From Actinomycetes bacterium (GTDB lineage Bacteria > Actinomycetota > Actinomycetes > Mycobacteriales > Mycobacteriaceae): a stretch of DNA of 64,000 bases. The stretch lies in NCBI GenBank assembly GCA_022601135.1, contig JAHZJB010000043.1, positions 20,075-84,074 of the forward strand, in the 5' to 3' direction. Numbering within the stretch: position 1 is the stretch's first letter; every line of letters starts with the position of its first letter. The notes under the pieces are model-generated. The model was given only the letters and a program-made list of their open reading frames with translations. It was not told the DNA's origin and did not search any database. Positions 5,997 through 47,716 of the stretch are shown here, piece by piece. The translations under genes were made by a program, and so were the position numbers.

Positions 5997-6676
5997 CGGG
6001 TCTGCGTCGAACGTTTTTCTCGCTGATCGCAGCAGGATCGCTGTCGCTGGGCTTGGCGGCGCCGGTGTCCGCGGAGCCGGCCAACGGTCTGTGGGATCCG
6101 ACTCTGCCCAAGATTCTCAGCGCCGGGGCGCCGGGCGATCCGTTGTCCATGGCCAACGCATCACTGGCCGCGACGGCCCAGGCCACCAAGATCACCATGG
6201 ATCTCGGCCGAAAGTTCCTCAGCAGCCTGGGGTTCGGCCCACCGCTGGGCGTGGCTCCGGGGGTGGTGCGCGGCCCGGCGGCGATCGAGCATGTGATCCG
6301 CCGTGGCGGCTCGCAGATCGGTACGCCGTACTCGTGGGGTGGCGGGAAGCCCAACGGCCCCAGCCGCGGAATCGACTCCGGCGCCAATATCGTCGGGTAC
6401 GACTGCTCCGGCTTCACCCAATTCGCCTTCGCCGGCGTCGGCGTACTGATCCCGAAGTACTCCGGAGACCAGTACGACACCGGGCGTAAGGTTCCGACGA
6501 ATCAGGCCAAGCGTGGCGATCTGCTGTTCTGGGGCCCCGGGGGTAGCCAGCACGTGGCCATTTACCTCGGCGGGGGGAAGATGCTGGAGGCTTCCGGCAG
6601 CGCGGGCAAGGTTACCGTCAGCCCCGTGCGTTCTGCGGGTCTGCAGCCGTACGTGGCCCGCATCATCGAATCCTGA
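5990..6676 (+). CDS. ripB: NlpC/P60 peptidoglycan endopeptidase RipB
   Basis: Signal peptide, WDPTLPK, PYSWGGG, GYDCSGF, HVAIY; overlaps the ripA stop. Confidence 0.95.
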   Translation: MVTGLRRTFFSLIAAGSLSLGLAAPVSAEPANGLWDPTLPKILSAGAPGDPLSMANASLAATAQATKITMDLGRKFLSSLGFGPPLGVAPGVVRGPAAIEHVIRRGGSQIGTPYSWGGGKPNGPSRGIDSGANIVGYDCSGFTQFAFAGVGVLIPKYSGDQYDTGRKVPTNQAKRGDLLFWGPGGSQHVAIYLGGGKMLEASGSAGKVTVSPVRSAGLQPYVARIIES

Positions 6677-6852
6677 GTGTCCCCTGAGGCGGCCCCGGGT
6701 AGGACCGGTGAAATACCGGCACGCGACGCGGCGCACCTCGGGGCAACGTCGACGGATTTCCAAGCAACTGGAATAGTTGACGGCGAGCGCGCGGCCAGAA
6801 CGGGTCCGCGCCGTATTGACCAGCATGGCTTGCGCATGTGGAAGGAACGTTG

Positions 6853-8010
6853 ATGACCTCACCGAGTGGGCCGCCGCAAGGCGCTGGAGGATATTCCGGG
6901 ACCGCGCCGGGTTATGCCGCCGGTGCTCATGCCGCGCAGAGCGCCGCGCAATCGGGTTCTGCACTGTCCAACGGCAACCTGCAGCAGCAGGTGCATACCC
7001 TCGAGCGCGCGATCTTCGAGGTCAAACGGATCATCGTCGGCCAGGATCTGCTGGTCGAGCGGATGCTGGTCGGCCTGCTGGCCAGGGGCCACGTGCTGCT
7101 CGAGGGTGTGCCCGGGGTAGCCAAGACGCTGGCGGTGGAGACCCTTGCCAAAGTGGTCGGTGGAACGTTCGCCCGCATCCAGTTCACCCCCGACCTGGTG
7201 CCCACCGACATCGTCGGTACCCGCATCTACCGCGCAGGCAAGGAGGAGTTCGACATCGAACTCGGCCCGGTGGTCGTCAACTTCTTGCTCGCCGACGAGA
7301 TCAACCGCGCCCCCGCGAAGGTGCAGTCCGCCCTTCTTGAGGTGATGGCCGAGCGCAAGATCTCCATCGGCGGCAAGACTTTCCCGCTGCCCCGCCCGTT
7401 CCTGGTGATGGCCACCCAGAACCCCATCGAGCAGGAGGGCGTCTATCAGCTTCCGGAAGCACAGCGGGACCGCTTTTTGTTCAAGCTCAACGTCGACTAC
7501 CCCTCGCCCGAGGAGGAGCGCGAGATCATCTACCGGATGGGTGTGAAACCCCCGGAGGCCAAAGCGATCCTGACCACCCAGGACCTGCTGCACCTGCAGG
7601 ACGTCGCCGCGAACACCTTCGTCCACCATGCGCTGGTCGACTACGTCGTACGCATCGTGACCGCTACCCGTGAGCCCGAGAAGTTCGGGATGCCCGACGC
7701 GAGGCCCTGGATCGCGTATGGCGCGTCTCCGCGTGCGTCGCTGGGCATCATCGCCGCCGCCCGGGCGCTGGCTTTGGTGCGTGGCCGCGACTATGTGATC
7801 CCGCAGGATGTCGTCGAGGTCATTCCCGACGTGCTGCGCCATCGTCTGGTGCTGACCTACGATGCGCTCGCCGACGAGATCTCCAGTGAGACGGTGGTAA
7901 ACCGTATCCTGCAGACCGTCGCGTTGCCTCAAGTGAATGCGATTCCGCAGCAAGGCCATTCGGTTGCGCCCGCGGTCCCGGCCGCTGCGGCCGCGGCCGG
8001 TGGTCGCTGA
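6853..8010 (+). CDS. moxR1: MoxR-family AAA+ ATPase MoxR1
   Basis: Walker A GVPGVAKT, RIQFTPDLVPTD, LLADEINRAPAKVQSALLE, MATQNPIEQEG. Confidence 0.95.
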   Translation: MTSPSGPPQGAGGYSGTAPGYAAGAHAAQSAAQSGSALSNGNLQQQVHTLERAIFEVKRIIVGQDLLVERMLVGLLARGHVLLEGVPGVAKTLAVETLAKVVGGTFARIQFTPDLVPTDIVGTRIYRAGKEEFDIELGPVVVNFLLADEINRAPAKVQSALLEVMAERKISIGGKTFPLPRPFLVMATQNPIEQEGVYQLPEAQRDRFLFKLNVDYPSPEEEREIIYRMGVKPPEAKAILTTQDLLHLQDVAANTFVHHALVDYVVRIVTATREPEKFGMPDARPWIAYGASPRASLGIIAAARALALVRGRDYVIPQDVVEVIPDVLRHRLVLTYDALADEISSETVVNRILQTVALPQVNAIPQQGHSVAPAVPAAAAAAGGR

Positions 8011-29150: not shown

Positions 29151-29193
29151 GGGTGGAATTGTTCCGCACTGGTTCTTTGCGATGATGGTGGGC

Positions 29194-29844
29194 GTGAATG
29201 ATGAATCATCGAGCCCGGTCGAGCCGGTGGCCGGCAACGGGGCCGTGGGGCCACCGCAGGGTGGGCAACGGCGTCGCCTGCGCCTTCTGCTCACCGTGGC
29301 GGGAGTGGTGCTGGCCTTGGACATCGTCACCAAGGTGATGGCGGTGAGGTTGCTGACGCCCGGTCAGCCAGTATCGATAGTCGGCGATACCGTGACGTGG
29401 ACTCTGGTGCGCAACTCGGGCGCGGCGTTCTCGATGGCGACCGGGTACACGTGGGTACTCACCGTGGTTGCCACGGGCGTCGTCGTCGGCATCATCTGGA
29501 TGGGCCGTCGCCTGGTGTCTCCGTGGTGGGCGATCGGTCTCGGCATGATTCTCGGCGGTGCCATGGGTAACCTCGTCGACCGGTTCTTCCGATCACCGGG
29601 GCCGTTGCGCGGTCATGTCGTGGACTTTCTGTCCATCGGGTGGTGGCCGGTGTTCAACGTGGCAGACCCCTCCGTGGTGGGCGGTGCGATCCTGTTGGTG
29701 GGGTTGTCGTTGTTCGGCTTTGATTTTGACACCGTCGGGAGGCGCCAGCCGGACGACGCCGAGGACACCGTCGGGAGGCGCCAGCCGGACGACGCCGAGG
29801 ACACCGTCGGGAGGCGCCAGCCGGACGACGAGTCCGGGGATTGA
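29194..29844 (+). CDS. lspA: Lipoprotein signal peptidase LspA with tandemly repeated C-terminal tail
   Basis: [39 protein letters not shown]. Confidence 0.96.
29728..29830. repeat. 36-bp tandem repeat, ~2.8 perfect copies ([12 protein letters not shown])
   Basis: GACACCGTCGGGAGGCGCCAGCCGGACGACGCCGAG at 29728 and 29764, partial copy at 29800. Confidence 0.97.
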
Positions 29845-35900: not shown

Positions 35901-36503
35901 ATGCTGGGACTCTACGTGTCGGGGCATCCGCTCAACGGTATCGCCCACCTGCTGTCCACTCAGGTGGACACCGCTATCCCGGCGATCCTGGATGGTGACG
36001 TAGCCAACGACACTCAGGTTCGGGTCGGTGGCATCCTGGCGTCGGTGAATCGCCGGGTCAACAAGAACGGATTGCCTTGGGCCTCAGCGCAACTGGAGGA
36101 CCTCACCGGTGGCATCGAAGTGCTCTTCTTTCCGCAGACGTACGCGATGTTCGGCGCCGAGATCGCCGACGATGCCGTCGTGCTGCTGGGCGCCAAGGTA
36201 GCCATCCGGGATGACCGGATCTCGCTGATCGCCAACCAGCTTGTCGTGCCTGATTTCTCGAGTGCCCAGGTGAACCGGCCCGTTGCGCTGAGCCTGCCGA
36301 CGCGGCAATGCACCGTAGATAAGGTCAACGCGCTCAAGCAGGTGCTGACACGTCATCCGGGTACTGCCCAGGTGCATCTGCGGCTGATCAGCGGGGAGCG
36401 CATCACCACCCTCGAGTTGGATCAGTCGCTCCGGGTGACACCGTCTTCGGCGCTGATGGGTGATCTCAAGGAGTTGTTGGGTCCCGGCTGTCTCGGCGGA
36501 TGA
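32946..36503 (+). CDS. dnaE1: DNA polymerase III alpha subunit DnaE1
   Basis: PHP domain [44 protein letters not shown] fold; no intein; TAGACT -10 at 32931. Confidence 0.98.
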
Positions 36504-37739: not shown

Positions 37740-40700
37740 TCAATATCCGATCGAAATTCGCAGCTGGTCCGCCGGTTCGGTGTTGTTGAGGATCAGCACC
37801 GAACTTTGGTCATTGACGTCGTCGTAGGGAAACCCGTAGGCGAGTTGTTCGATGCCGATGTCGTGAAACAGCTTGGCCCAGGGGTTCCATCGCTGGCCGT
37901 CCGGATAGTAGGCGGCGACGTTGTTCCACTGCCCGGGAGTGTCCGCCACACCCCGGTTGAACGCCGCGTCGAGCTCGGCGAGGAACAGCACCTGTAGCCC
38001 GGCACCGGCGAACGGGCCGTCGGCGGCGAAGGTTTCCGCTGTCGTGGGTTTGGCCATGGTGTACGCGGTGGGCGCGCCGCCCGGTGGGGTCACGGTGTAT
38101 TCGAACAGTTGGGTGTCGGCGTTGACGCCGCCGCTGACCAGGTAGCCGGGGCCGTTGTGGGTGAATGTTTCGTTGGTGTACTTGTCCCAGAAGTCCCGGA
38201 TTGGTTCGTCGAGCCAACTGGCCACCGCGCCAGGCTGGGCCGTGCGCGGTGACAGCATCCGCAGCGGGTTGCCCGAGGCATCTCTGATGACCAGTGGCTG
38301 GAATGCCGCCGGAAGCGCTTGGGCGAAGGTGTTGAACACTTCGCTGCGCGCTGCCTCCAGGCCCCGGGTGGCCGAGAAGCCGCTGGCCGACTGCTCCAGG
38401 GTGAACGTGATCGGCACTGCGAACATGTCGACCTGGGTGGTGTTGGCGCCGAAAGCGACCCGGCCGTGGTCGTAGGTCAGCTCGAAGTAGTCGTACACCG
38501 TGTGATAGTTGGGATCGCGTTGATACGCCGGGTCGGGCCCGGCCCAGCTGGCGTTATCGGCGCCGATTCCGATGAACAAGGGCTGGCCCATCGAGACGTA
38601 CATTCGGGTGCCCTGTATCTCCGGTGGAACCCGCAGACCATCCGCGTCGGCGAGGCTGAATGACATGTTGGCGTAGTTGACCGAGTCCTTTGTCAGGTGG
38701 CCCGGGGCGTCGGCGGCGGTGTGGTCGAGTGGGTGAGCCACACCGGCGGCGTCGACCCACGACCAGGTCCCCGGCGGCGCCTGGCCGAGAATGGTCAGGA
38801 AGATTTCGTCGTCGCCGAAGGCGCCGCCGGTGTTGTTGACCAGAGTCACCGGGAAGGAGCCGGTCGGCGCATCTGGTGCCGGGGGAGGGGGCGGCGGGGG
38901 TTCTGGCACCGGACTTGAACCATCGCCATAGCCATAATCGCCGTAGACGTAGCGGGTACCGGCACCGAAAGTGTCCAGGAAGAAGGTCTCCACCGCGGGG
39001 TTTACTTCGACCCGTGAATCGCCCCATTCGGGACCCCATCCGTGCGCGGGCCAGTCGGAGTTGATGTAGGCCAGGGCCGCCACGTCGTACTGCTCGACCA
39101 CCTCATCCAGGCGGTCCAGGTACTCGATGAACAGGTTTGGATCGCCTGCAGCCGGATTCTGTGCCGTCGACTCGGCAATGACGATTTGGTGGCCCTGCGC
39201 TCGCGCAAAATCCATGGCCAAGGCAAGGTTTGGATCGATTCGCTGGCCCGGCGCATTGACGATTCCGTAGGCTTCCATGCCGACATCGTGGTTGAAGACC
39301 GAGAACCCGACCCAGTCGACGTTCTCCGGTCCGGGATAGAGCCACTGGGTGTCGTTCAGCCCCCGAACCGGGTGGAAGCCGAACTCTACGTTGTCGGCCT
39401 GGGATTCGATGCGATCGACGATGTGGTTGTAGGCGTCGATGAAGGCATAACGATCGAGTTCGGGATAGGCGTCAGGGTTGTCGAACACATTGATCCCCGA
39501 ATTCGCTTTCTCGGTGAGCCAGTCATTGATGTACTGCTCGCCGGTGTAGGCGAAAAGCGGCAGGCCGACCTCGTATCCGACGCGGAGCAGAAATTGAGTG
39601 TCGGGACGGCTTGCGATGATGTCGGCGAAACTGTCGATCTGATTGTCCCACATGCCGTTTCGGATGTCGTTGAGCGCTTCCCAGACCGCGTTGGAATTGT
39701 AGTCGGCCGCATTCGGATTGACCATCTGGCCGTATCCCCCGGCCGGGGTGTTGTCCTTGAGGCTCAGTGCGACCATGGCGTAGTCGCCGAGATCGTTGTC
39801 GCGGATGTAGTCCAAGAATTCGGCGTTCGGGCCGTCGTCACCCTGCTCGATCGTTCCCCAGTAGAAGGTCGAGTAGTGCGAGGATCCGGCCGGGGTCAGC
39901 CCGGTTCCCTCGATGAAGTCGGTGTATTCCTGCTGGAAGGTCTGCCCGACGAGCATCAACGTCGTGCCCCCAGCCAGGGCGCCGAGGGGAGCGGGCGCCG
40001 CACCGGGCTCCTGGGGGTCGTTGACCGGCGTGACGATGATGGTAACCGTGGCGGGGTCGCTGCTGGCCGTGCCGTCGGAGGCGGTGTAGGTGAATACGTC
40101 GGTACCGGCGAAGTTGGAGGTGGGGGTGTAGCTGAACACGCCGTCGGGGTTCAGGTTCACGCTGCCGTGGGCCGCGCCGGCGCCCAATGCGGCACTGAGC
40201 TTGTCGGCGTCGGCATCGGTGTCGTTGGCAAGCACGTTGCCCAATACCGGGGTGCCTTGGGCGGTGACGAAAGTGTCGTCGCGGGCGACCGGTGGGGTGC
40301 CGGCGGGGGGTGGCACCGTGGGGGGTGGCACCGTGGGGGGTGGTGTGTAGGTCCTGCCCTCGGCCCCGTCTGGTGCTGGACCGGAGACGACGACACCGTC
40401 AACACCGTCGGTGCCGCCGGTGCCCGCCGTGCCGCCCGGGCCCGCGTTACCTGAAGCGCCGCCGGCGCCTCCCCGTCCGCCCATCGGATTCGCGGCGTCG
40501 CCATCGGCGCCGTCACCGCCGCGGCCGCCCGCACCGCCATCACCTCCGGACCCTCCGTTGCCACCGCGGCCGAACCAGCCACCCGAACCGCCGTCCCCGC
40601 CGGCCCCACCGGAACCGCCGCGGGTGCCGTCAGCACCCGCTGCACCTGGAATGGCGGCAGCTGTGCCGTCGATGCCGTCCGCCCCGTTGCCACCAGCGCC

Positions 40701-41675
40701 GCCGTCACCGCCGTTGCCCGCGAAAAAGCCTGCATCGCCGCCGGTTCCGCCATGTCCACCGTTGCCACCAGGGGCCATCGCAGCGCCGCCGGCCCCGCCC
40801 TTCCCGCCGTTGCCGAAGAACAGCCCGCCGTTGCCGCCCCGGCCGCCGTTGAAGCCATCACCACCATTGCCGAACCAGCCGGCGGAGCCGCCGTGACAGA
40901 CCCTGCCACCGGTGCAGGTGGTCGCGTCCCAACTGAATCCGTTGCCCCACAACAACCCTGCATCGGGATGCTCGGCGGTCCCATGGCCAAACAGCCAGAC
41001 GCTGGTGTCAGCGCCAAGGCCGACCTCACGGCGCACATACGCCGCGGCCGCCCAGTTGAGCGGGTCTGCGACCGGAGCGGCCGGAACGTCATCGGAAGTC
41101 TGGCTTGCGGACCCGCCGGCCGAACGCGCCGCGCGGACCGGGGCGGCGGCCTGCGTCGGTTCGGCTGACGGCACGTCCGGCTCGGCGGTGCTCGAAGCGC
41201 CCGGGTCAACAACTTCCGCCGGCGCGACATCGGCGGCAAGAAGCCTGTCATTATCGCTGCCAACCGAAGCCGAAGGGCTCACGTGCTCCTCTGGACTCCC
41301 ATCGGCCTCCTCTGAAAGATCGGAGAGTTCGTCGATCGCCTCGACCGCTGGATCGGGGTCTTGTTCCGAATCCAGTTCATCCGAGGCCGGCGCTGGCGAG
41401 TCCTCCAGTTCTGACGTTGCGGCTGCGGTCTTCTCGATCGTGTGGCCGGTACTCGACGGCCCCGGCCGCGACGTCGGTTCTGACTTGGTCTCCACTGCCG
41501 GCGAATTCGAACTACCCGAGTCGGTGGCGTCGGCAAACGCCACTGCCGGCAGGCAGGCGATCGCCATGCCGACGCCCAGGGCGACCGCGAGCCCGCCAAT
41601 CCGGCCCACATAGCGCGAACAACCCGATGCCGGCCGCGTGGCTACCGGCGATGACACCTCGACTGGGCGAAACAT
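37740..41675 (-). CDS. Secreted modular glycanase: signal peptide - acidic linker - PGRS-like Gly repeats - Ig/cadherin-like - GH26 (beta-1,3-xylanase-like) - GH64 (beta-1,3-glucanase)
   Basis: YVGRIGGLAVALGVG...AVAFA signal; GGxGGxGG repeats; PVARDDT...VLANDTD...GVFSYTP..F.GTDVFTY (Ig-like); LRVGYEV, YPG..VDWVGFS, IAEST, YINSDW, WGDSRV (GH26); VTLVNNT, DYFELT, NTTQVDMF, AYGFPYDDV (GH64). Confidence 0.85.
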   Translation of the reverse strand: MFRPVEVSSPVATRPASGCSRYVGRIGGLAVALGVGMAIACLPAVAFADATDSGSSNSPAVETKSEPTSRPGPSSTGHTIEKTAAATSELEDSPAPASDELDSEQDPDPAVEAIDELSDLSEEADGSPEEHVSPSASVGSDNDRLLAADVAPAEVVDPGASSTAEPDVPSAEPTQAAAPVRAARSAGGSASQTSDDVPAAPVADPLNWAAAAYVRREVGLGADTSVWLFGHGTAEHPDAGLLWGNGFSWDATTCTGGRVCHGGSAGWFGNGGDGFNGGRGGNGGLFFGNGGKGGAGGAAMAPGGNGGHGGTGGDAGFFAGNGGDGGAGGNGADGIDGTAAAIPGAAGADGTRGGSGGAGGDGGSGGWFGRGGNGGSGGDGGAGGRGGDGADGDAANPMGGRGGAGGASGNAGPGGTAGTGGTDGVDGVVVSGPAPDGAEGRTYTPPPTVPPPTVPPPAGTPPVARDDTFVTAQGTPVLGNVLANDTDADADKLSAALGAGAAHGSVNLNPDGVFSYTPTSNFAGTDVFTYTASDGTASSDPATVTIIVTPVNDPQEPGAAPAPLGALAGGTTLMLVGQTFQQEYTDFIEGTGLTPAGSSHYSTFYWGTIEQGDDGPNAEFLDYIRDNDLGDYAMVALSLKDNTPAGGYGQMVNPNAADYNSNAVWEALNDIRNGMWDNQIDSFADIIASRPDTQFLLRVGYEVGLPLFAYTGEQYINDWLTEKANSGINVFDNPDAYPELDRYAFIDAYNHIVDRIESQADNVEFGFHPVRGLNDTQWLYPGPENVDWVGFSVFNHDVGMEAYGIVNAPGQRIDPNLALAMDFARAQGHQIVIAESTAQNPAAGDPNLFIEYLDRLDEVVEQYDVAALAYINSDWPAHGWGPEWGDSRVEVNPAVETFFLDTFGAGTRYVYGDYGYGDGSSPVPEPPPPPPPAPDAPTGSFPVTLVNNTGGAFGDDEIFLTILGQAPPGTWSWVDAAGVAHPLDHTAADAPGHLTKDSVNYANMSFSLADADGLRVPPEIQGTRMYVSMGQPLFIGIGADNASWAGPDPAYQRDPNYHTVYDYFELTYDHGRVAFGANTTQVDMFAVPITFTLEQSASGFSATRGLEAARSEVFNTFAQALPAAFQPLVIRDASGNPLRMLSPRTAQPGAVASWLDEPIRDFWDKYTNETFTHNGPGYLVSGGVNADTQLFEYTVTPPGGAPTAYTMAKPTTAETFAADGPFAGAGLQVLFLAELDAAFNRGVADTPGQWNNVAAYYPDGQRWNPWAKLFHDIGIEQLAYGFPYDDVNDQSSVLILNNTEPADQLRISIGY
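40305..40346. repeat. 15-bp tandem repeat encoding a Pro-rich linker (TPPPTVPPPTVPPP)
   Basis: GGGGGGTGGCACCGT x2 plus a partial copy, between the Gly-rich and Ig-like parts. Confidence 0.85.
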
Positions 41676-42736: not shown

Positions 42737-42902
42737 TGAAACCAGCCCGAAAGACGCGGGAACCGACGTTCACACCGCACCCGCGGCCGGACCCGACGAC
42801 GCCCGAGAAGGGCGGTGCCGAACACTCAACCACGTTGTTCGACACGCTTTAGATAGACTTCGGCCGTTCCCGGCCCGTAACGCGTCGGCTCCAGGAGGCC
42901 TC

Positions 42903-44030
42903 CTGATCACGCTATGCTCCGCCGACCGCGGACCCGATCCCGCCGTGCTGCACGCTCCGGGCGGATTCACCTGGTTCTATGTCGACCTGGTCGATGACCG
43001 GGGCCGCGGCGCCACCCTGATCTGGTCGTGGGGGCTGCCCTTCCTTCCGGGCTACGCGCGCTCATCCCGTATCGGCCGCCCGCAGTTGCCGATCAACCGT
43101 CCCAGCGTCAATCTGGTCGTCTACGAGGGTGGGCGCGAGCGGTTCTACCTGTTGTCCGAGTTCGCCCCCGATCAATGCTCCTGGAGCCCGGACAGCCGAT
43201 CCTGGCAGCTCGGCGACTGCAGGTTTACCTGCACCGACACCCCGTCCCCCGCGGGTGACGCTCCGACTCGTGCGTTAAGGGCCGATCTCGACCTTGCGCT
43301 GCCCACCGGCGGCCGGGCCACCGGTCAGCTACGGCTCTCCGGCCCGCTGCGCCGTGACCCGCCCAGGGCCGCCGGGCCCGCCGGTCCGACCGGGGCGCAC
43401 GTGTGGACGCCGATGATCGCCGCCAGCCGGGGTGGTCTTCACCTGCAGATCCCCGGTGGCGACTTTCGGGTCGAGGGCCGCGTCTATCACGACCGCAACA
43501 GCGCCACCCGGCCGCTACATGACCTCGGCGTGCAGAGTTGGTTGTGGGGCCGACTCGCGCTGCCGGGCCGAGACCTTGTTTTTTATCGACTTGTCCCGTC
43601 GGCACCCGGGGAGCTGCCACGGGATCTTGTCGTCGAGATCGCCGCCGACGGCAGCTCCCGGCTGTGTGATGATCCCGGTCTTGAGGTGGGCGGCCTGCGC
43701 CGCAGCCTCTGGGGACTGCCGTGGCCGGTTAGCGTCACTTTCGCCGACCCAGACGGCCGCCCGGTGTCGGCGGAAGTCAGTGCCGTGCTCGACAACGGAC
43801 CGTTCTATCAGCGCTATCTGCTGCGCGGTCGGTGCGGCGCGCAACAGGGGTACGGCGTGGGGGAGAACCTGGTGCCGGACCGGGTCGACTCCGACCTGCT
43901 GCGGCCCCTGGTACGGATGCGGGTCCACCGTGCCGGCGGGCCGAACTCGATGTGGCTGCCGCTGTTCTCCGGTGATAGCGACGGCCGGTGGGCCAGACTG
44001 ATCGGCCGTTCGGGCCCCGTGCGGGTATGA
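42903..44030 (+). CDS. crtC: Carotenoid 1,2-hydratase (CrtC-like); probable CTG start at 42903, first canonical start GTG 42945
   Basis: PGGFTWFYVDLVDDRGRGATLI...SVNLVVYE, YHDRNSATRPL...WLWGR and LDNGPFY parallel CrtC motifs (GGY.WWY.D, YHD.N.G..PL, .EDTPFY). AGGAGG RBS at 42893-42898. Confidence 0.72.
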   Translation: MITLCSADRGPDPAVLHAPGGFTWFYVDLVDDRGRGATLIWSWGLPFLPGYARSSRIGRPQLPINRPSVNLVVYEGGRERFYLLSEFAPDQCSWSPDSRSWQLGDCRFTCTDTPSPAGDAPTRALRADLDLALPTGGRATGQLRLSGPLRRDPPRAAGPAGPTGAHVWTPMIAASRGGLHLQIPGGDFRVEGRVYHDRNSATRPLHDLGVQSWLWGRLALPGRDLVFYRLVPSAPGELPRDLVVEIAADGSSRLCDDPGLEVGGLRRSLWGLPWPVSVTFADPDGRPVSAEVSAVLDNGPFYQRYLLRGRCGAQQGYGVGENLVPDRVDSDLLRPLVRMRVHRAGGPNSMWLPLFSGDSDGRWARLIGRSGPVRV

Positions 44031-45253
44031 GCCACGAGCTGTCGGTTGGCGCCCTGGTCGACGGATCCGCTCCGCTGTGGGCCCAGGTGGCGGCCGCCCT
44101 GTTGGCCCTGCCCGCCTTGCCTGGGCTTGGCCTGGTGGCGTTCAACGCGCTGTATTGGACCCGCGGCCGGCCGCTGCCGGCGGCCGCCCTGGCCGCACCC
44201 GGAGGGGTCAGTGTCCTGATACCGGCCCGCGACGAAGTGCACAACATCGAGGCCTGCGTACGGGCGGCCGACGGTGCCCGCGGTCCGATCACCGAGATCA
44301 TCGTCTACGACGACTGCTCCACCGATGGTACCGGCGAGTTGCTCGCGAGGTTGCAGGCTGAACTGCCCCGACTCCGGGTGATCGGCGGGGACGGCCTGCC
44401 GCCGGGCTGGGTCGGCAAACCGCACGCCCTGCACCGGCTCACCGCCGCGTCGGGCGGCGAACTGCTACTCAACATCGATGCCGATGTCATCTTGCGTCCC
44501 GACGGTGTGCTGCGCATGCTCTCGCTGCTCGGCCCGGCCGACCAGGTGCCCGGCGGACTCGGTGCCGCGTTGGTCACCGCGGTACCCCGCCAGCGAACCG
44601 GTAGTTTCGCCGAACGGTTGATGATCCCGCTGCTGCACCTGTCCTATGTGGCCTGGTTGCCGATGCCGCTGATCCACCGCACCCGCGACCCGCGGGTGCT
44701 GGCGGCGAACGGCCAGCTGCTTCTGATCCGGCGGTCGGCGCTGGCCGCGGCGGGCGGCTGGGCGCGGGTGCGTACCGCGCTGGTGGACGATATGGCCGTG
44801 TGCCGCGCGGTGAAACAGAGCGGCGGGCGGGTCGTTTTCGCCGACGGCGACCAGGTGGCTGACTGCCGGATGTACGGCGACGGGGCATCTCTGTGGCGGG
44901 GGTTTTCGAAGAACTTCTACGAGGGTATCGGCGGTCACCCGCTGGCGCTGATCCTCGTGCTGATGCTGCACCTGCTGGTGTTCGTCCTACCATTCGTCGC
45001 CCTTCCGATCGCTGCGCTGTCGGGCGCCGGGGGGCTGGCGGCGGCCGCTGCGGTCGGCGTGGGCGCCAACCTGGCACTGCGTCTGATCATGGCGCTGCGC
45101 TACGGCCACAGTCCGGTTAGTGTGCTCCTGCACCCGCTGGCCGTGGCGCTGATGATGGGTGTCCTGCTGAACAGCTTCCGGTGCAGCCGGCGCGGTGATA
45201 TTCGTTGGCGCGGTCGCACCTATGCCGCCCGCGCCCAGCGGGAGGCGGTGTGA
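44027..45253 (+). CDS. GT2 glycosyltransferase, carotenoid glucosyltransferase type (CruC/CrtQ-like)
   Basis: VSVLIPARDE, YDDCSTDGT, PPGWVGKPHAL, IDADV, ANGQLLL, LVDDMA, CRMY...WRGFSKN; C-terminal TMs; ATGA-coupled to crtC. Confidence 0.85.
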   Translation: MSHELSVGALVDGSAPLWAQVAAALLALPALPGLGLVAFNALYWTRGRPLPAAALAAPGGVSVLIPARDEVHNIEACVRAADGARGPITEIIVYDDCSTDGTGELLARLQAELPRLRVIGGDGLPPGWVGKPHALHRLTAASGGELLLNIDADVILRPDGVLRMLSLLGPADQVPGGLGAALVTAVPRQRTGSFAERLMIPLLHLSYVAWLPMPLIHRTRDPRVLAANGQLLLIRRSALAAAGGWARVRTALVDDMAVCRAVKQSGGRVVFADGDQVADCRMYGDGASLWRGFSKNFYEGIGGHPLALILVLMLHLLVFVLPFVALPIAALSGAGGLAAAAAVGVGANLALRLIMALRYGHSPVSVLLHPLAVALMMGVLLNSFRCSRRGDIRWRGRTYAARAQREAV

Positions 45254-46063
45254 ACCCCGCCCCGGACCCCGGATCACCCGCGGACCGCGGGGCTGACCGG
45301 CAGGCGCTGGACCGGGCCGGGGACACCAGACACCCGGCCTTTCTTCGTGTGGCGCGCCCCTACGCCCGCCACCGGGTGGCCCGCGGGCTGGACGGTTTGT
45401 GGGTGGCTGGACTTGACCGCGCGCGTGCCACGCTGGCCGACCGGCCGGTGCTGTTCGCCTCCAATCATGTCGCTTGGTGGGACGCCCTGCTTCTGGCGCT
45501 ACTCGATGAGGCCCTCGGCGGTACGGGGTGGGCGGTGATGGACGCGGTGAACCTGGGCAAACTGCCCTTCCTCGGCTGGGTTGGGGCGCTGCCGCTGGAC
45601 CGCAGCAGCCCCGAACGCAGCCGGGAATGCCTGCGGAACTCGGCGGCTCTGCTTGACCGGCCCGGCCGCGGTGTGTGGATCTTCCCGCAAGGGCCGCCAA
45701 CGTCCGCCCCACCTGCGGCCGCTGGATCTCAAGGGCGGTATCGCGGTCATGCACGGACACAGCCCGGTGGACGTCATCGTCGCATGCATCGACTACGTGT
45801 TTCTGGAGCGGGACCGCCCGGCGGCGCTCGTCCGCTTCGGTCCGCCGCTGCCCGGGGCGGCGGTCGCCGGGCAGGCCCTGCTGCCGGCTGTCGAGACGGC
45901 GCTGCTGGAGGGTCTGGCTGCGATTGATATCGCCGCGGTGGCGGCGACCGACGGGCGCCGGGCCCGCACCCACCCCCAGGACCCGCTGCCCGGGTTCGTC
46001 CCGCTGGTGCGGCCCGGGGGGATCCTCCGGACCATCCGCCGCCGGAGATCGCATGCCTACTGA
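45250..46063 (+). pseudogene. Lysophospholipid-type acyltransferase (CruD-like), interrupted by a +1 frameshift at ~45691-45693
   Basis: First frame: ASNHVAWWD (HxxxxD) ... WIFPQG. The +1 frame continues RQRPPHLRPLDLKGGI...DYVFLERDRPAALVRFG and ends at 46063, overlapping the next start. Confidence 0.8.
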
Positions 46064-47555
46064 GCGCGGTGCGGAGATCCTGGTGCTCGGTGCCGGCATC
46101 GGTGGTCTGGCCGCCGCCCTGGCGTTATCCGCCCGCGGATTGCCCGTGCGGGTGATCGAGGCCGGCGCAAGACCGGGTGGTAAGGCCGGCATCGTTGAGT
46201 TGGACGGGGTGGTGGTCGACACCGGCCCGAGCGTGCTGACACTGCCGGAGGTCTTCGCCGGGCTGTTCGCCCGTGCCGGGCTGCGGCTGGACGAGGTGAT
46301 CGGCCTGCGCCGTCTCGACCCGGGTTTTCGTTACCGCTGGTCTGATGGTTGCGTGCTGGACGTGGCCCACGACCCGGACCGCACGCTCGCCAACATCCGA
46401 TCGGTTCTCGGACCGAGTGCGGAGGCTGAACTGGCGGCCTTCCTGGCCTACAGCCGCCGGATCTGGGAGGCGGCGGCGCCGAACTTCGTCCTCGGTCCGG
46501 CCCCCACCTGGTCAGCGATGTTCGCCCTGGCCCTGCGCCGCCCGCGGGCTCTGGCCGCAGTCGACCCGCTGCACAGCATGGTCGGTGGTATCGACCGACA
46601 CGTTCGAGAGCCGCACCTGCGGATGTTGTTGCGTCGCTACGCGACCTATAACGGCAGCGACCCCCGGCAAGCGCCGGCCACGTTGAACTGTATTGCGCAC
46701 GTGGAGCTTTCCCTCGGCGGGTATGGCGTGCAGGGTGGAATGTACGCGCTGGTCACCGCGCTGGTCGCCGCCATCGAGGCCCGCGGCGGGGTGATCGAAT
46801 GCGGGATACCGGTCGAACGGGTTCTGGTGGAGGGGAATTCGGTCGTCGGGCTGGCCCTGACCGATGGGGGGCAGCGGCGCGGCCGGGCAGTTGTGGTGAA
46901 CGCCGATGTTGGATGGCTGCGCGACGCCGGGCTGCCGGCGGCCGGGCGTCACCTTCCGGCCGCGGCGGCGTCGATGTCCGGGTGGAATGGGGTACTGCGG
47001 GCTGCCCGGCGGCCGGGCCGGGTGGCTCATGAGGTGCTGTTTCCGGACGACTATGACGCTGAGTTCTCCGATATCTTCGACTATGACCGGCCACCGGCGA
47101 CGCCGACGGTCTACCTCTGCGCCCAGGAACTCTGCCATGGGCGGGCGGGTTGGACCGACGACGAGCCGGTCTTCGTGATGGCCAATGCACCGGCCGAACC
47201 GGCTGGCGCTCAGCGGGATTCGGAAATGTGGGACGCCGTCGAAGCTGCAGTGACACAGCGAATCCGCGCAGCCGGATTGTGGTCGGACGGCGATGCGCTG
47301 GTTTGGCGCCGTAGTCCGGCGGAGTTGGCCGCCGCCTTCCCTGGCAGCCGCGGGGCCATCTACGGCGCGGCCAGTAACGACCGGTTCGCCGCCTTCAAGC
47401 GTCCGCCCAATCGGCTGGCCGGTGTGCCCGGTCTGTACCTCGCCTCGGGAAGTGCCCACCCGGGCGGGGGACTGCCGATGGTGGCCCTGTCCGGGCTGGC
47501 TGCCGCGGACAGTCTGCTCACCGACCAGTCGGTCAGCCTCCCACAGACCCGGTGA
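46053..47555 (+). CDS. Phytoene-desaturase-family carotenoid oxidoreductase (CrtD / CrtP-like)
   Basis: VLGAGIGGLAAA, DTGPSVLTLP, RYATYNGSDP.QAPATL..IAHVE, GGMYAL, GAIYG, GLYLASGSAHPGGGLPMVALSG; start ATG 46053. Confidence 0.88.
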   Translation: MPTERGAEILVLGAGIGGLAAALALSARGLPVRVIEAGARPGGKAGIVELDGVVVDTGPSVLTLPEVFAGLFARAGLRLDEVIGLRRLDPGFRYRWSDGCVLDVAHDPDRTLANIRSVLGPSAEAELAAFLAYSRRIWEAAAPNFVLGPAPTWSAMFALALRRPRALAAVDPLHSMVGGIDRHVREPHLRMLLRRYATYNGSDPRQAPATLNCIAHVELSLGGYGVQGGMYALVTALVAAIEARGGVIECGIPVERVLVEGNSVVGLALTDGGQRRGRAVVVNADVGWLRDAGLPAAGRHLPAAAASMSGWNGVLRAARRPGRVAHEVLFPDDYDAEFSDIFDYDRPPATPTVYLCAQELCHGRAGWTDDEPVFVMANAPAEPAGAQRDSEMWDAVEAAVTQRIRAAGLWSDGDALVWRRSPAELAAAFPGSRGAIYGAASNDRFAAFKRPPNRLAGVPGLYLASGSAHPGGGLPMVALSGLAAADSLLTDQSVSLPQTR

Positions 47556-47716
47556 GACCGCGGCCCGCAGCGGCGGACAAAGGCGCGGTGCTCGCCGAGG
47601 CTGCCGCCGAGGTCGTCGCCGTCCGGACTCTGGAACCTCAAAACCCACAACAAATTACGGGTCAAGTCTTAGCCGAAGTGCTGATTGAGGAAAGCCGACT
47701 TCGCTAGTCTGGTTAC

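Follow-up and report, generated by a model that had tools for sequence, protein, structure and literature searches.

A Compact, Predicted Carotenoid-Tailoring Cassette, Probably Acquired, in Uncultured Mycobacteriaceae

Layout of the Locus

We analyzed a 64,000-nucleotide (nt) stretch of DNA, here called the window, from a Mycobacteriaceae genome assembled from a sponge metagenome (GenBank GCA_022601135.1, contig JAHZJB010000043.1, positions 20,075 to 84,074). Within it lies a compact cassette, at window positions 42852–47577, in which a leader is followed by four genes predicted to encode carotenoid-modifying enzymes. All four open reading frames (ORFs) run in the same direction on the forward strand: gene 1 (42903–44030, or 42945–44030 from a later start), for a CrtC-like carotenoid 1,2-hydratase; gene 2 (44027–45253; 408 residues), for a membrane-bound family 2 glycosyltransferase (GT2) and predicted carotenoid 1′-O-glycosyltransferase; gene 3 (45250–46063; 270 residues if read through), for an acyltransferase of the PlsC/LPLAT type; and gene 4 (46053–47555; 500 residues), for a CrtD-like 1-hydroxycarotenoid 3,4-desaturase of the CrtI family. 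Genes 1 and 2 overlap in an ATGA (44027–44030) and genes 2 and 3 in a GTGA (45250–45253), and the ATG of gene 4 at 46053 overlaps the TGA of gene 3 at 46061–46063; this last overlap, of 11 nt, is valid solely for the downstream frame of gene 3, which occupies two frames in the window. An earlier note on this DNA had described four genes coupled by overlaps; its reading frames and overlap coordinates are exact, and what fails is its treatment of gene 3 as a single ORF in this record. We consider it likely that the cassette tailors the ψ end of a C40 carotenoid and that it was acquired and later relocated.

Predicted Functions of the Gene Products

Gene 1 scored 64 bits (E = 1e-17) against the NCBIfam CrtC model NF045922, in its C-terminal half only and with an equivalog cut-off of 400, and it had no match among our local Pfam profiles. 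The family PF27123:CrtC is precomputed for the gene at the same position in a near-identical contig and for 120 of 120 listed homologues. In tblastn comparisons, gene 1 aligned with annotated CrtC proteins that adjoin CrtD on plasmids of the Roseobacter group, at 26–30% identity over 89–91% of its length. An AlphaFold model of the protein (predicted local distance difference test score 73, predicted template-modeling score 0.74) matched AttH [Protein Data Bank (PDB) ID code 2ICH; Foldseek E = 2e-11, template-modeling scores 0.58/0.64] and kievitone hydratase (PDB ID code 7A0T; E = 5e-10) as well as fungal decalin-forming cyclases, which points to an AttH/CrtC-type, cofactor-free double β-barrel. 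A search of PDB sequences with gene 1 returned no match.

The gene 2 product carries the GT2 domain PF00535 (51 bits) together with PF13641 and PF13506. It has a DAD motif at residues 151–153, and its hydrophobic segments comprise one at the N terminus, one at residues 198–216, and a C-terminal block of about four overlapping or adjacent segments at residues 299–384. It combines, in other words, a GT2 catalytic domain bearing a DXD motif with embedding in the membrane. Among curated models, it scored highest against HpnB (144 bits; cut-off 379) and reached 127.5 bits against CruG (cut-off 600), a 2′-O-glycosyltransferase. Orthology to a characterized carotenoid glycosyltransferase was not found by comparison with CruG, CruC not being among the models compared.

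Read through, the gene 3 product matches PF01553 (37 bits) and contains the acyltransferase motifs NHVAWWD (HX4D) and FPQG. Gene 4 scored 373 bits (E = 1e-111) against NF045637, the model for proteobacterial CrtD (cut-off 580), and 239.7 bits against crtI_fam, just over the cut-off of 238.1. Its flavin adenine dinucleotide-binding motif, GAGIGG, occupies residues 13–18. The protein is only 25–29% identical to the separate CrtI whose gene adjoins crtB in outgroup clusters, and it is therefore a distinct paralogue. The domain and model matches, the fold, and the full-length homology of gene 1 to annotated CrtC uphold the identities proposed in the earlier note (CrtC-like, GT2, PlsC-type, and CrtD-like).

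The Frameshift in Gene 3

In the window, the frame that opens at 45250 meets a stop at 45927, and the frame closing at 46063 is not open until about 45695. Alignment to four relatives traced this split (45250–45927 and ∼45695–46063) to an extra A at 45689 on the forward strand (CAAGGG instead of CAGGG), directly after the FPQG and within acyltransferase motif III (FPQG|R). PF01553 with both HX4D and FPXG-R in one ORF is present in all relatives and absent from the window, and the two halves of gene 3 share one frame in every related locus. The operon that had been taken to be intact is thus frameshifted in this record.

A public contig from a second assembly (JAHZIS010028579.1 of GCA_022599615.1) is 99.92% identical to window positions 36052–57555, with the extra A as the sole indel, and its gene 3 is intact, for an acyltransferase of 270 residues. 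Over these 21.5 kb, the two differ by 17 substitutions and this one insertion, all between 36751 and 55309, and three of the substitutions fall within 12 nt at 41150–41161. Contigs of three sponge metagenome runs, with word depths of 733, 17, and 138, also lack the extra A, and wherever the window has a private substitution in the 8 kb that we examined, they agree with the public contig. Because the public contig, the three runs, and all relatives lack the extra A, the frameshift is most likely private to this record, as either an error or a very recent or private variant; the contig comparison is still compatible with a minor frameshifted variant.

If the frameshift were real, the cassette could be a decaying remnant in a host with neither a backbone pathway nor pigment, and the 64-kb window indeed holds no carotenoid backbone gene. 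We judge such decay unlikely. The runs that lack the extra A come from the same kind of sample and, in the 8 kb compared, lack the window’s other private substitutions too, and two public assemblies that span gene 3 at this locus encode an intact 270-residue protein. Moreover, all four genes are under purifying selection: with the extra A in gene 3 ignored, pairwise dN/dS (the ratio of nonsynonymous to synonymous substitution rates) was 0.08–0.28 against eight relatives, and it was 0.08–0.27 against the closest relative, at a synonymous divergence (dS) of ∼0.10. Constraint of this kind implies that these hosts contain a substrate.

Leader, Start Codon, and Boundaries

Comparison by blastn and an upstream alignment that included two Myxococcota-like loci, L047 and L050, delimited a conserved 5′ leader at 42852–42902 on the forward strand. 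It contains a −10-like TAGACT (42854–42859), which lies within the motif GGATAGACTT of the relatives, and a Shine–Dalgarno sequence, AGGAGG (42893–42898). The motif, followed by GGAGG, is common even to L047 and L050 and coincides with the left boundary of the cassette. A consensus σ70 scan found no promoter match in the leader. Because the conserved motif stands at the boundary and recurs in L047 and L050, the cassette probably carries its own promoter. A scan for terminators gave matches at chance level only.

The start of gene 1 at 42903 is a CTG codon, giving a protein of 375 residues; the first canonical in-frame start, a GTG at 42945, would give 361. Among 56 Mycobacteriaceae loci, the window included, the codon at the aligned position is CTG in 38, TTG in 12, GTG in 5, and ATG in 1, and in all 56 it follows the GGAGG by ∼4 nt. 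In many of the CTG loci, the window among them, reading upstream in frame meets a stop codon before any canonical start. This pattern among homologues suggests that 42903 is the real start of gene 1 and that initiation at CTG is genuine.

DNA homology to the closest relatives begins exactly at 42852 and ends at 47510–47577 in blastn alignments. The 3′ tail (47556–47577, forward strand) extends to the point where contiguous homology to the closest relative stops. Outside 42852–47577, no flank matches, not even that of L001, a locus with 96% DNA identity across the cassette. The closest cassettes carry one or two extra conserved genes downstream, for a DUF2237 protein and a hydrophobic membrane protein of 143 residues (L084, 12201–12632; L085, 14709–15140; L004, 14603–15001 and 16010–16438). 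The window lacks both and has at most a trace, a 22-nt match at 47605–47626 that may be a remnant of the fifth gene found in sister cassettes. Just left of the boundary, the intergenic segment 42719–42850 reaches three to nine times the depth of its surroundings in three sponge metagenome runs, whose contigs are fragmented into short pieces there. This suggests a repeated element; neither the window nor the related loci that we retrieved hold a second copy.

Relatives and Carotenoid Backbone Genes

A scan with gene 1, taking one genome per species, gave 147 relatives, from which the best 80 were kept. Those at 61–94% identity came almost wholly from uncultured Mycobacterium or Mycobacteriaceae of lakes, rivers, sediments, and sponges, and a second tier at 39–48% came from Myxococcota, Bradymonadales-like bacteria, and Gemmatimonadota. 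The best 80 of the 147 included no named cultured Mycobacterium species. One carrier, isolate MiE-22 (locus L029), is represented by a complete chromosome, OZ248467.1. Among 50%-identity cluster representatives, searched exhaustively, a single cluster lay above 50%, with the next relatives at 46–49%. All mycobacterial loci of sufficient length preserve the order crtC–GT2–acyltransferase–crtD (in L039 and L049, the match stops shortly past gene 1), and the order recurs in many loci of Myxococcota and Gemmatimonadota. In most outgroup loci, the cassette adjoins some or all of crtY, crtE, crtI, and crtB, sometimes with a CrtW-like desaturase/ketolase gene.

Backbone genes are missing from the mycobacterial surroundings. 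The statement in the earlier note that the window holds no crtE, crtB, or crtY was confirmed by tblastn with the proteins of a complete myxobacterial cluster (E < 1e-4), which found no CrtW either. The same kind of search detected no crtE, crtB, crtI, or crtY within 10 kb of any mycobacterial cassette. In L011 and L013, an SQS_PSY gene adjoins the cassette; we considered it as a backbone gene and rejected it, the NCBIfam models placing it as squalene-synthase-like and not as CrtB. Sponge metagenome contigs compared with the L011 flank at 80% likeness include none that covers the SQS_PSY gene, and they are uninformative as to the backbone.

These surroundings raise the question of whether the enzymes act on another isoprenoid lipid, for example one derived from squalene or hopanoids or a long-chain polyprenyl compound. 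The HpnB match of gene 2, the lack of backbone genes near any mycobacterial copy, and the squalene-synthase-like neighbor would all suit such a substrate. Yet that neighbor occurs in only one of ∼13 contexts, the homology of gene 1 to CrtC is full-length, gene 4 matches the CrtD model with high significance, and the nearest nonmycobacterial cassettes mostly adjoin carotenoid backbone genes, some with the ketolase gene as well. On this evidence, a noncarotenoid substrate is quite improbable.

Acquisition and Relocation

We built a neighbor-joining tree of genes 1, 2, and 4 (1179 columns), rooted on a Gemmatimonadota outgroup. In it, the mycobacterial cassettes group as a single clade inside the Myxococcota sequences: L047 and L050 are sister to all Mycobacteriaceae, and the Myxococcota loci L055 and L056 branch next, with bootstrap support of 100/100 at these nodes. 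L047 and L050 have a guanine-plus-cytosine (GC) content of 75% throughout, and their cassette proteins are 66–75% identical to those of the window. In L047, crtE, crtB, and a gene for a MopE/FG-GAP protein adjoin the cassette. Also beside crtB–crtE and the sister cassette in L047, on the reverse strand at 6579–7520, is a CarH/LitR-like light-sensor regulator with MerR and B12-binding domains; no such regulator occurs near any mycobacterial copy. The tree is most simply read as one transfer, in which a Myxococcota-like donor passed the cassette to an ancestor of the mycobacterial clade.

GC content adds little to this. The cassette stands at 70.8%, whereas the remainder of the window is at 65.9% and contains no 4.7-kb stretch above 68.9%; 60-nt lines within the cassette reach 83%, in agreement with a remark on very GC-rich lines in the note. 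We considered the raised GC as proof of foreign origin and dropped it as weak, since GC at third codon positions matches that of host genes and Gemmatimonadota cassettes exceed their own flanks by the same 4–5%. The difference fits acquisition and is weak evidence for it.

Across ∼50 mycobacterial loci, the flanks fall into 13 groups upstream and 11 downstream, which makes at least 11 distinct settings of the cassette. The majority context is mpg/tyrS (24–30 loci); others are mutT1/hupB and sulfatase/crcB–pgm, and the context of the window, with a LysR gene on one side and a gene for an Rv1558-like nitroreductase (Fqr), ilvA, and treZYX on the other, is unique. The pairs mpg–tyrS and mutT1–hupB are adjacent in Mycobacterium tuberculosis H37Rv, and for this reason we conclude that the cassette moved and the flanks did not. 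The nested phylogeny, the sharp boundaries of homology, and the many insertion contexts strongly support the proposal, made at the outset from the letters alone, that the cassette was acquired as a self-contained add-on. An alternative, an ancestral actinobacterial cassette inherited vertically amid ordinary genome rearrangement, would fit long descent at mpg/tyrS within one clade, but we hold it to be highly improbable given the well-supported nesting within Myxococcota, the absence of actinobacterial relatives between 50% and 61% identity and of named cultured Mycobacterium species among the best 80 loci, and the position of the cassette between conserved pairs of core genes.

As for the means of relocation, a search for terminal inverted or direct repeats and for a target-site duplication bracketing 42852 and 47577 gave only chance GC-rich matches, and no integrase or transposase was found in the Pfam-annotated neighborhoods of four contexts. 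The search for plasmid copies from Actinomycetota was negative, plasmid matches being confined to photosynthesis plasmids of the Roseobacter group, and there were no phage matches. The cassette has none of the classical marks of an insertion sequence or transposon, an integron cassette, or an integrase island. In a search for an empty site, every contig that encodes the window’s LysR also bears the cassette, and no record was found of the exact Fqr protein or of two other window proteins. It is conceivable, though less likely than not, that a promoter and four genes devoid of mobility functions passed as a unit from Myxococcota to aquatic and sponge-associated Mycobacteriaceae and were re-inserted at at least 10 intergenic sites between core genes. 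End-joining capture of linear DNA might have moved it, which is a guess.

Two side observations concern individual carriers. L004, which belongs to the same cassette subclade as the window, has flanks of 74% GC, placing that subclade in hosts of differing base composition. L005 is a second, different cassette carrier, with proteins at 78–87% identity, and its accession prefix, JAHZJY, is adjacent to JAHZIS, which suggests that it and the public contig matching the window came from the same submission. Together, the two loci hint at transfer between actinomycetes.

Surroundings of the Cassette in the Window

A Pfam view of the context in the window showed core housekeeping genes only. The gene order comprises NfeD/band-7, mutAB, meaB, ileS, dinX, ansA, lspA, rluD, and dnaE1, followed by ilvA, treZ, treY, glgX, and a gene for an acyltransferase-3/SGNH protein; as a whole, it parallels M. 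tuberculosis Rv1486c to Rv1565c. In a variable stretch between dnaE1 and the cassette, the reverse strand encodes a 1311-residue protein (37740–41675) with cadherin-like and Big_9 repeats and a GH64 (β-1,3-glucanase) domain, unusual for a mycobacterium. In a second assembly of the same population, lspA (window ∼29180–29770) is uncalled and the following gene lies at another distance (L083, 15743–16668, against L082, 15774–16364), which suggests a structural difference between strains.

Discussion

The reading that we prefer, a cassette acquired and relocated that tailors the ψ end of a C40 carotenoid, leads to a specific predicted pathway. The CrtC-like hydratase would hydrate the C-1,2 double bond, leaving a tertiary hydroxyl at C-1, and the CrtD-like flavoprotein would introduce the 3,4 double bond. 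The membrane GT2 would then move a hexose onto the 1-hydroxyl, and the PlsC-type acyltransferase would esterify the sugar with a fatty acid. The expected product is a carotenoid glycoside ester, amphipathic and of the same type as myxobacton ester, salinixanthin, or phleixanthophyll ester, made from a backbone that a pathway encoded elsewhere would have to supply. From γ-carotene, the chemistry predicted for these proteins would give phleixanthophyll-type glycosides or esters with a 1′-glycosyloxy-3′,4′-didehydro-1′,2′-dihydro ψ end. The same logic of hydration, desaturation, glycosylation, and acylation had been put forward in the earlier note, and the linkage of the cassette to crt clusters in outgroups and the composition of the M. 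xanthus carB operon (PMC8156234) both speak for it.

We propose the following history. A Myxococcota-like donor, in which the cassette formed part of a complete crt cluster, would have passed it a single time to environmental Mycobacteriaceae, where it would thereafter have been inherited mostly between mpg and tyrS. Later moves would have brought it to new chromosomal sites, including the LysR/Rv1558-like–ilvA site of the window.

Several points weigh against this reading. Genes 1 and 4 score under the cut-offs of the curated CrtC and CrtD models, and the best curated match of gene 2, also below its cut-off, is to a hopanoid-associated protein and not to a carotenoid enzyme. As written, the acyltransferase in the window is disrupted. 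The mycobacterial cassettes have no backbone genes in the 10 kb around them. Finally, the tree was built from distances and depends for its root on Gemmatimonadota.

The chemistry is already known; the portability of the cassette and its presence in mycobacteria are new. It is a candidate set of genes for making carotenoid glycoside esters in Mycobacteriaceae, pigments of a kind known chemically in the wider order for decades. As a naturally minimized and translationally coupled part of four genes, it could go into any producer of lycopene or γ-carotene. The proposed transfer from Myxococcota to Mycobacteriaceae would be a clean cross-phylum case, followed by repeated relocation with no recognizable mobility machinery, and it bears on how mycobacterial genomes acquire DNA. 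If the more tentative reading, of re-insertion at many sites, is true, a whole uncultured mycobacterial clade makes membrane glyco-carotenoid esters and does so with a crtC translated from a conserved CTG start.

Comparison with Known Systems

Within Mycobacteriales, glucosides and glucoside esters of the product class predicted here are known from several strains. Phleixanthophyll has reportedly been obtained from M. phlei. It is also cited for Nocardia kirovani (PMC5822342), and Rhodococcus sp. CIP makes OH-chlorobactene glucoside hexadecanoate, for which a CrtC–CruC–CruD route has been proposed (PMC7502451). Our literature search found no genes tied to these pigments and no link between genes of the crtC, cruC, or cruD type and mycobacterial pigments. 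Because the literature searched makes no gene assignment and no named cultured species stands among the best 80 of the 147 loci, the cassette, which the earlier note had offered as a candidate basis for phleixanthophyll-type pigments, may not be the genetic basis of the known ones; it may instead be a parallel solution in uncultured lineages, separate from the genes of M. phlei.

The CrtC/CrtD pair of purple bacteria (for example, on Roseobacter litoralis and Sulfitobacter plasmids) resembles the cassette in that crtC lies beside crtD and gene 1 aligns over 90% of its length. It differs in its low identity (26–30%), in its setting in photosynthesis gene clusters, and in the next step, which is O-methylation by CrtF and not glycosylation and acylation.

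The overall logic is the same in Chlorobaculum tepidum, in which CrtC, CruC, and CruD reportedly lead to OH-chlorobactene glucoside laurate, as Maresca and Bryant are said to have found in 2006. There, too, 1′,2′-hydration is followed by a GT2 glucosyltransferase and then by a PlsC-like acyltransferase. Unlike the genes of the cassette, those of C. tepidum are dispersed in the genome, and the route has no CrtD step; the three genes are mentioned in PMC6166724.

The acyl glycosides of the salinixanthin type in Salinibacter ruber and Rhodothermus marinus, whose predicted enzymes include the GT2 CruC and the acyltransferase CruD (PMC5822342), belong to the same product class: monocyclic, 3′,4′-didehydro, 1′-glycoside fatty-acid esters. 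R. marinus differs in that cruC is unlinked to the cluster and that a ketolase and a 2′-hydroxylase are also involved, and a four-gene cassette is not known there.

A close counterpart by function is the carB operon of Myxococcus xanthus, which contains crtD and crtC plus orf6 and orf9, putatively for a glycosyltransferase and an acyltransferase, respectively; the pathway ends in myxobacton ester, a fatty-acid ester of a monocyclic keto-carotenoid glycoside (PMC8156234 and PMC9304148). The same four enzyme functions would act on the ψ end of a monocyclic carotenoid in both systems. The mycobacterial cassette also branches within the diversity of Myxococcota, and a CarH-like regulator adjoins its sister cluster in L047; outside L047 and L050, the nearest sampled Myxococcota are only 39–48% identical. 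In M. xanthus, the genes are interspersed with cyclase genes in one long operon, whereas the cassette is contiguous, translationally coupled, and detached from crtE, crtI, crtB, and crtY.

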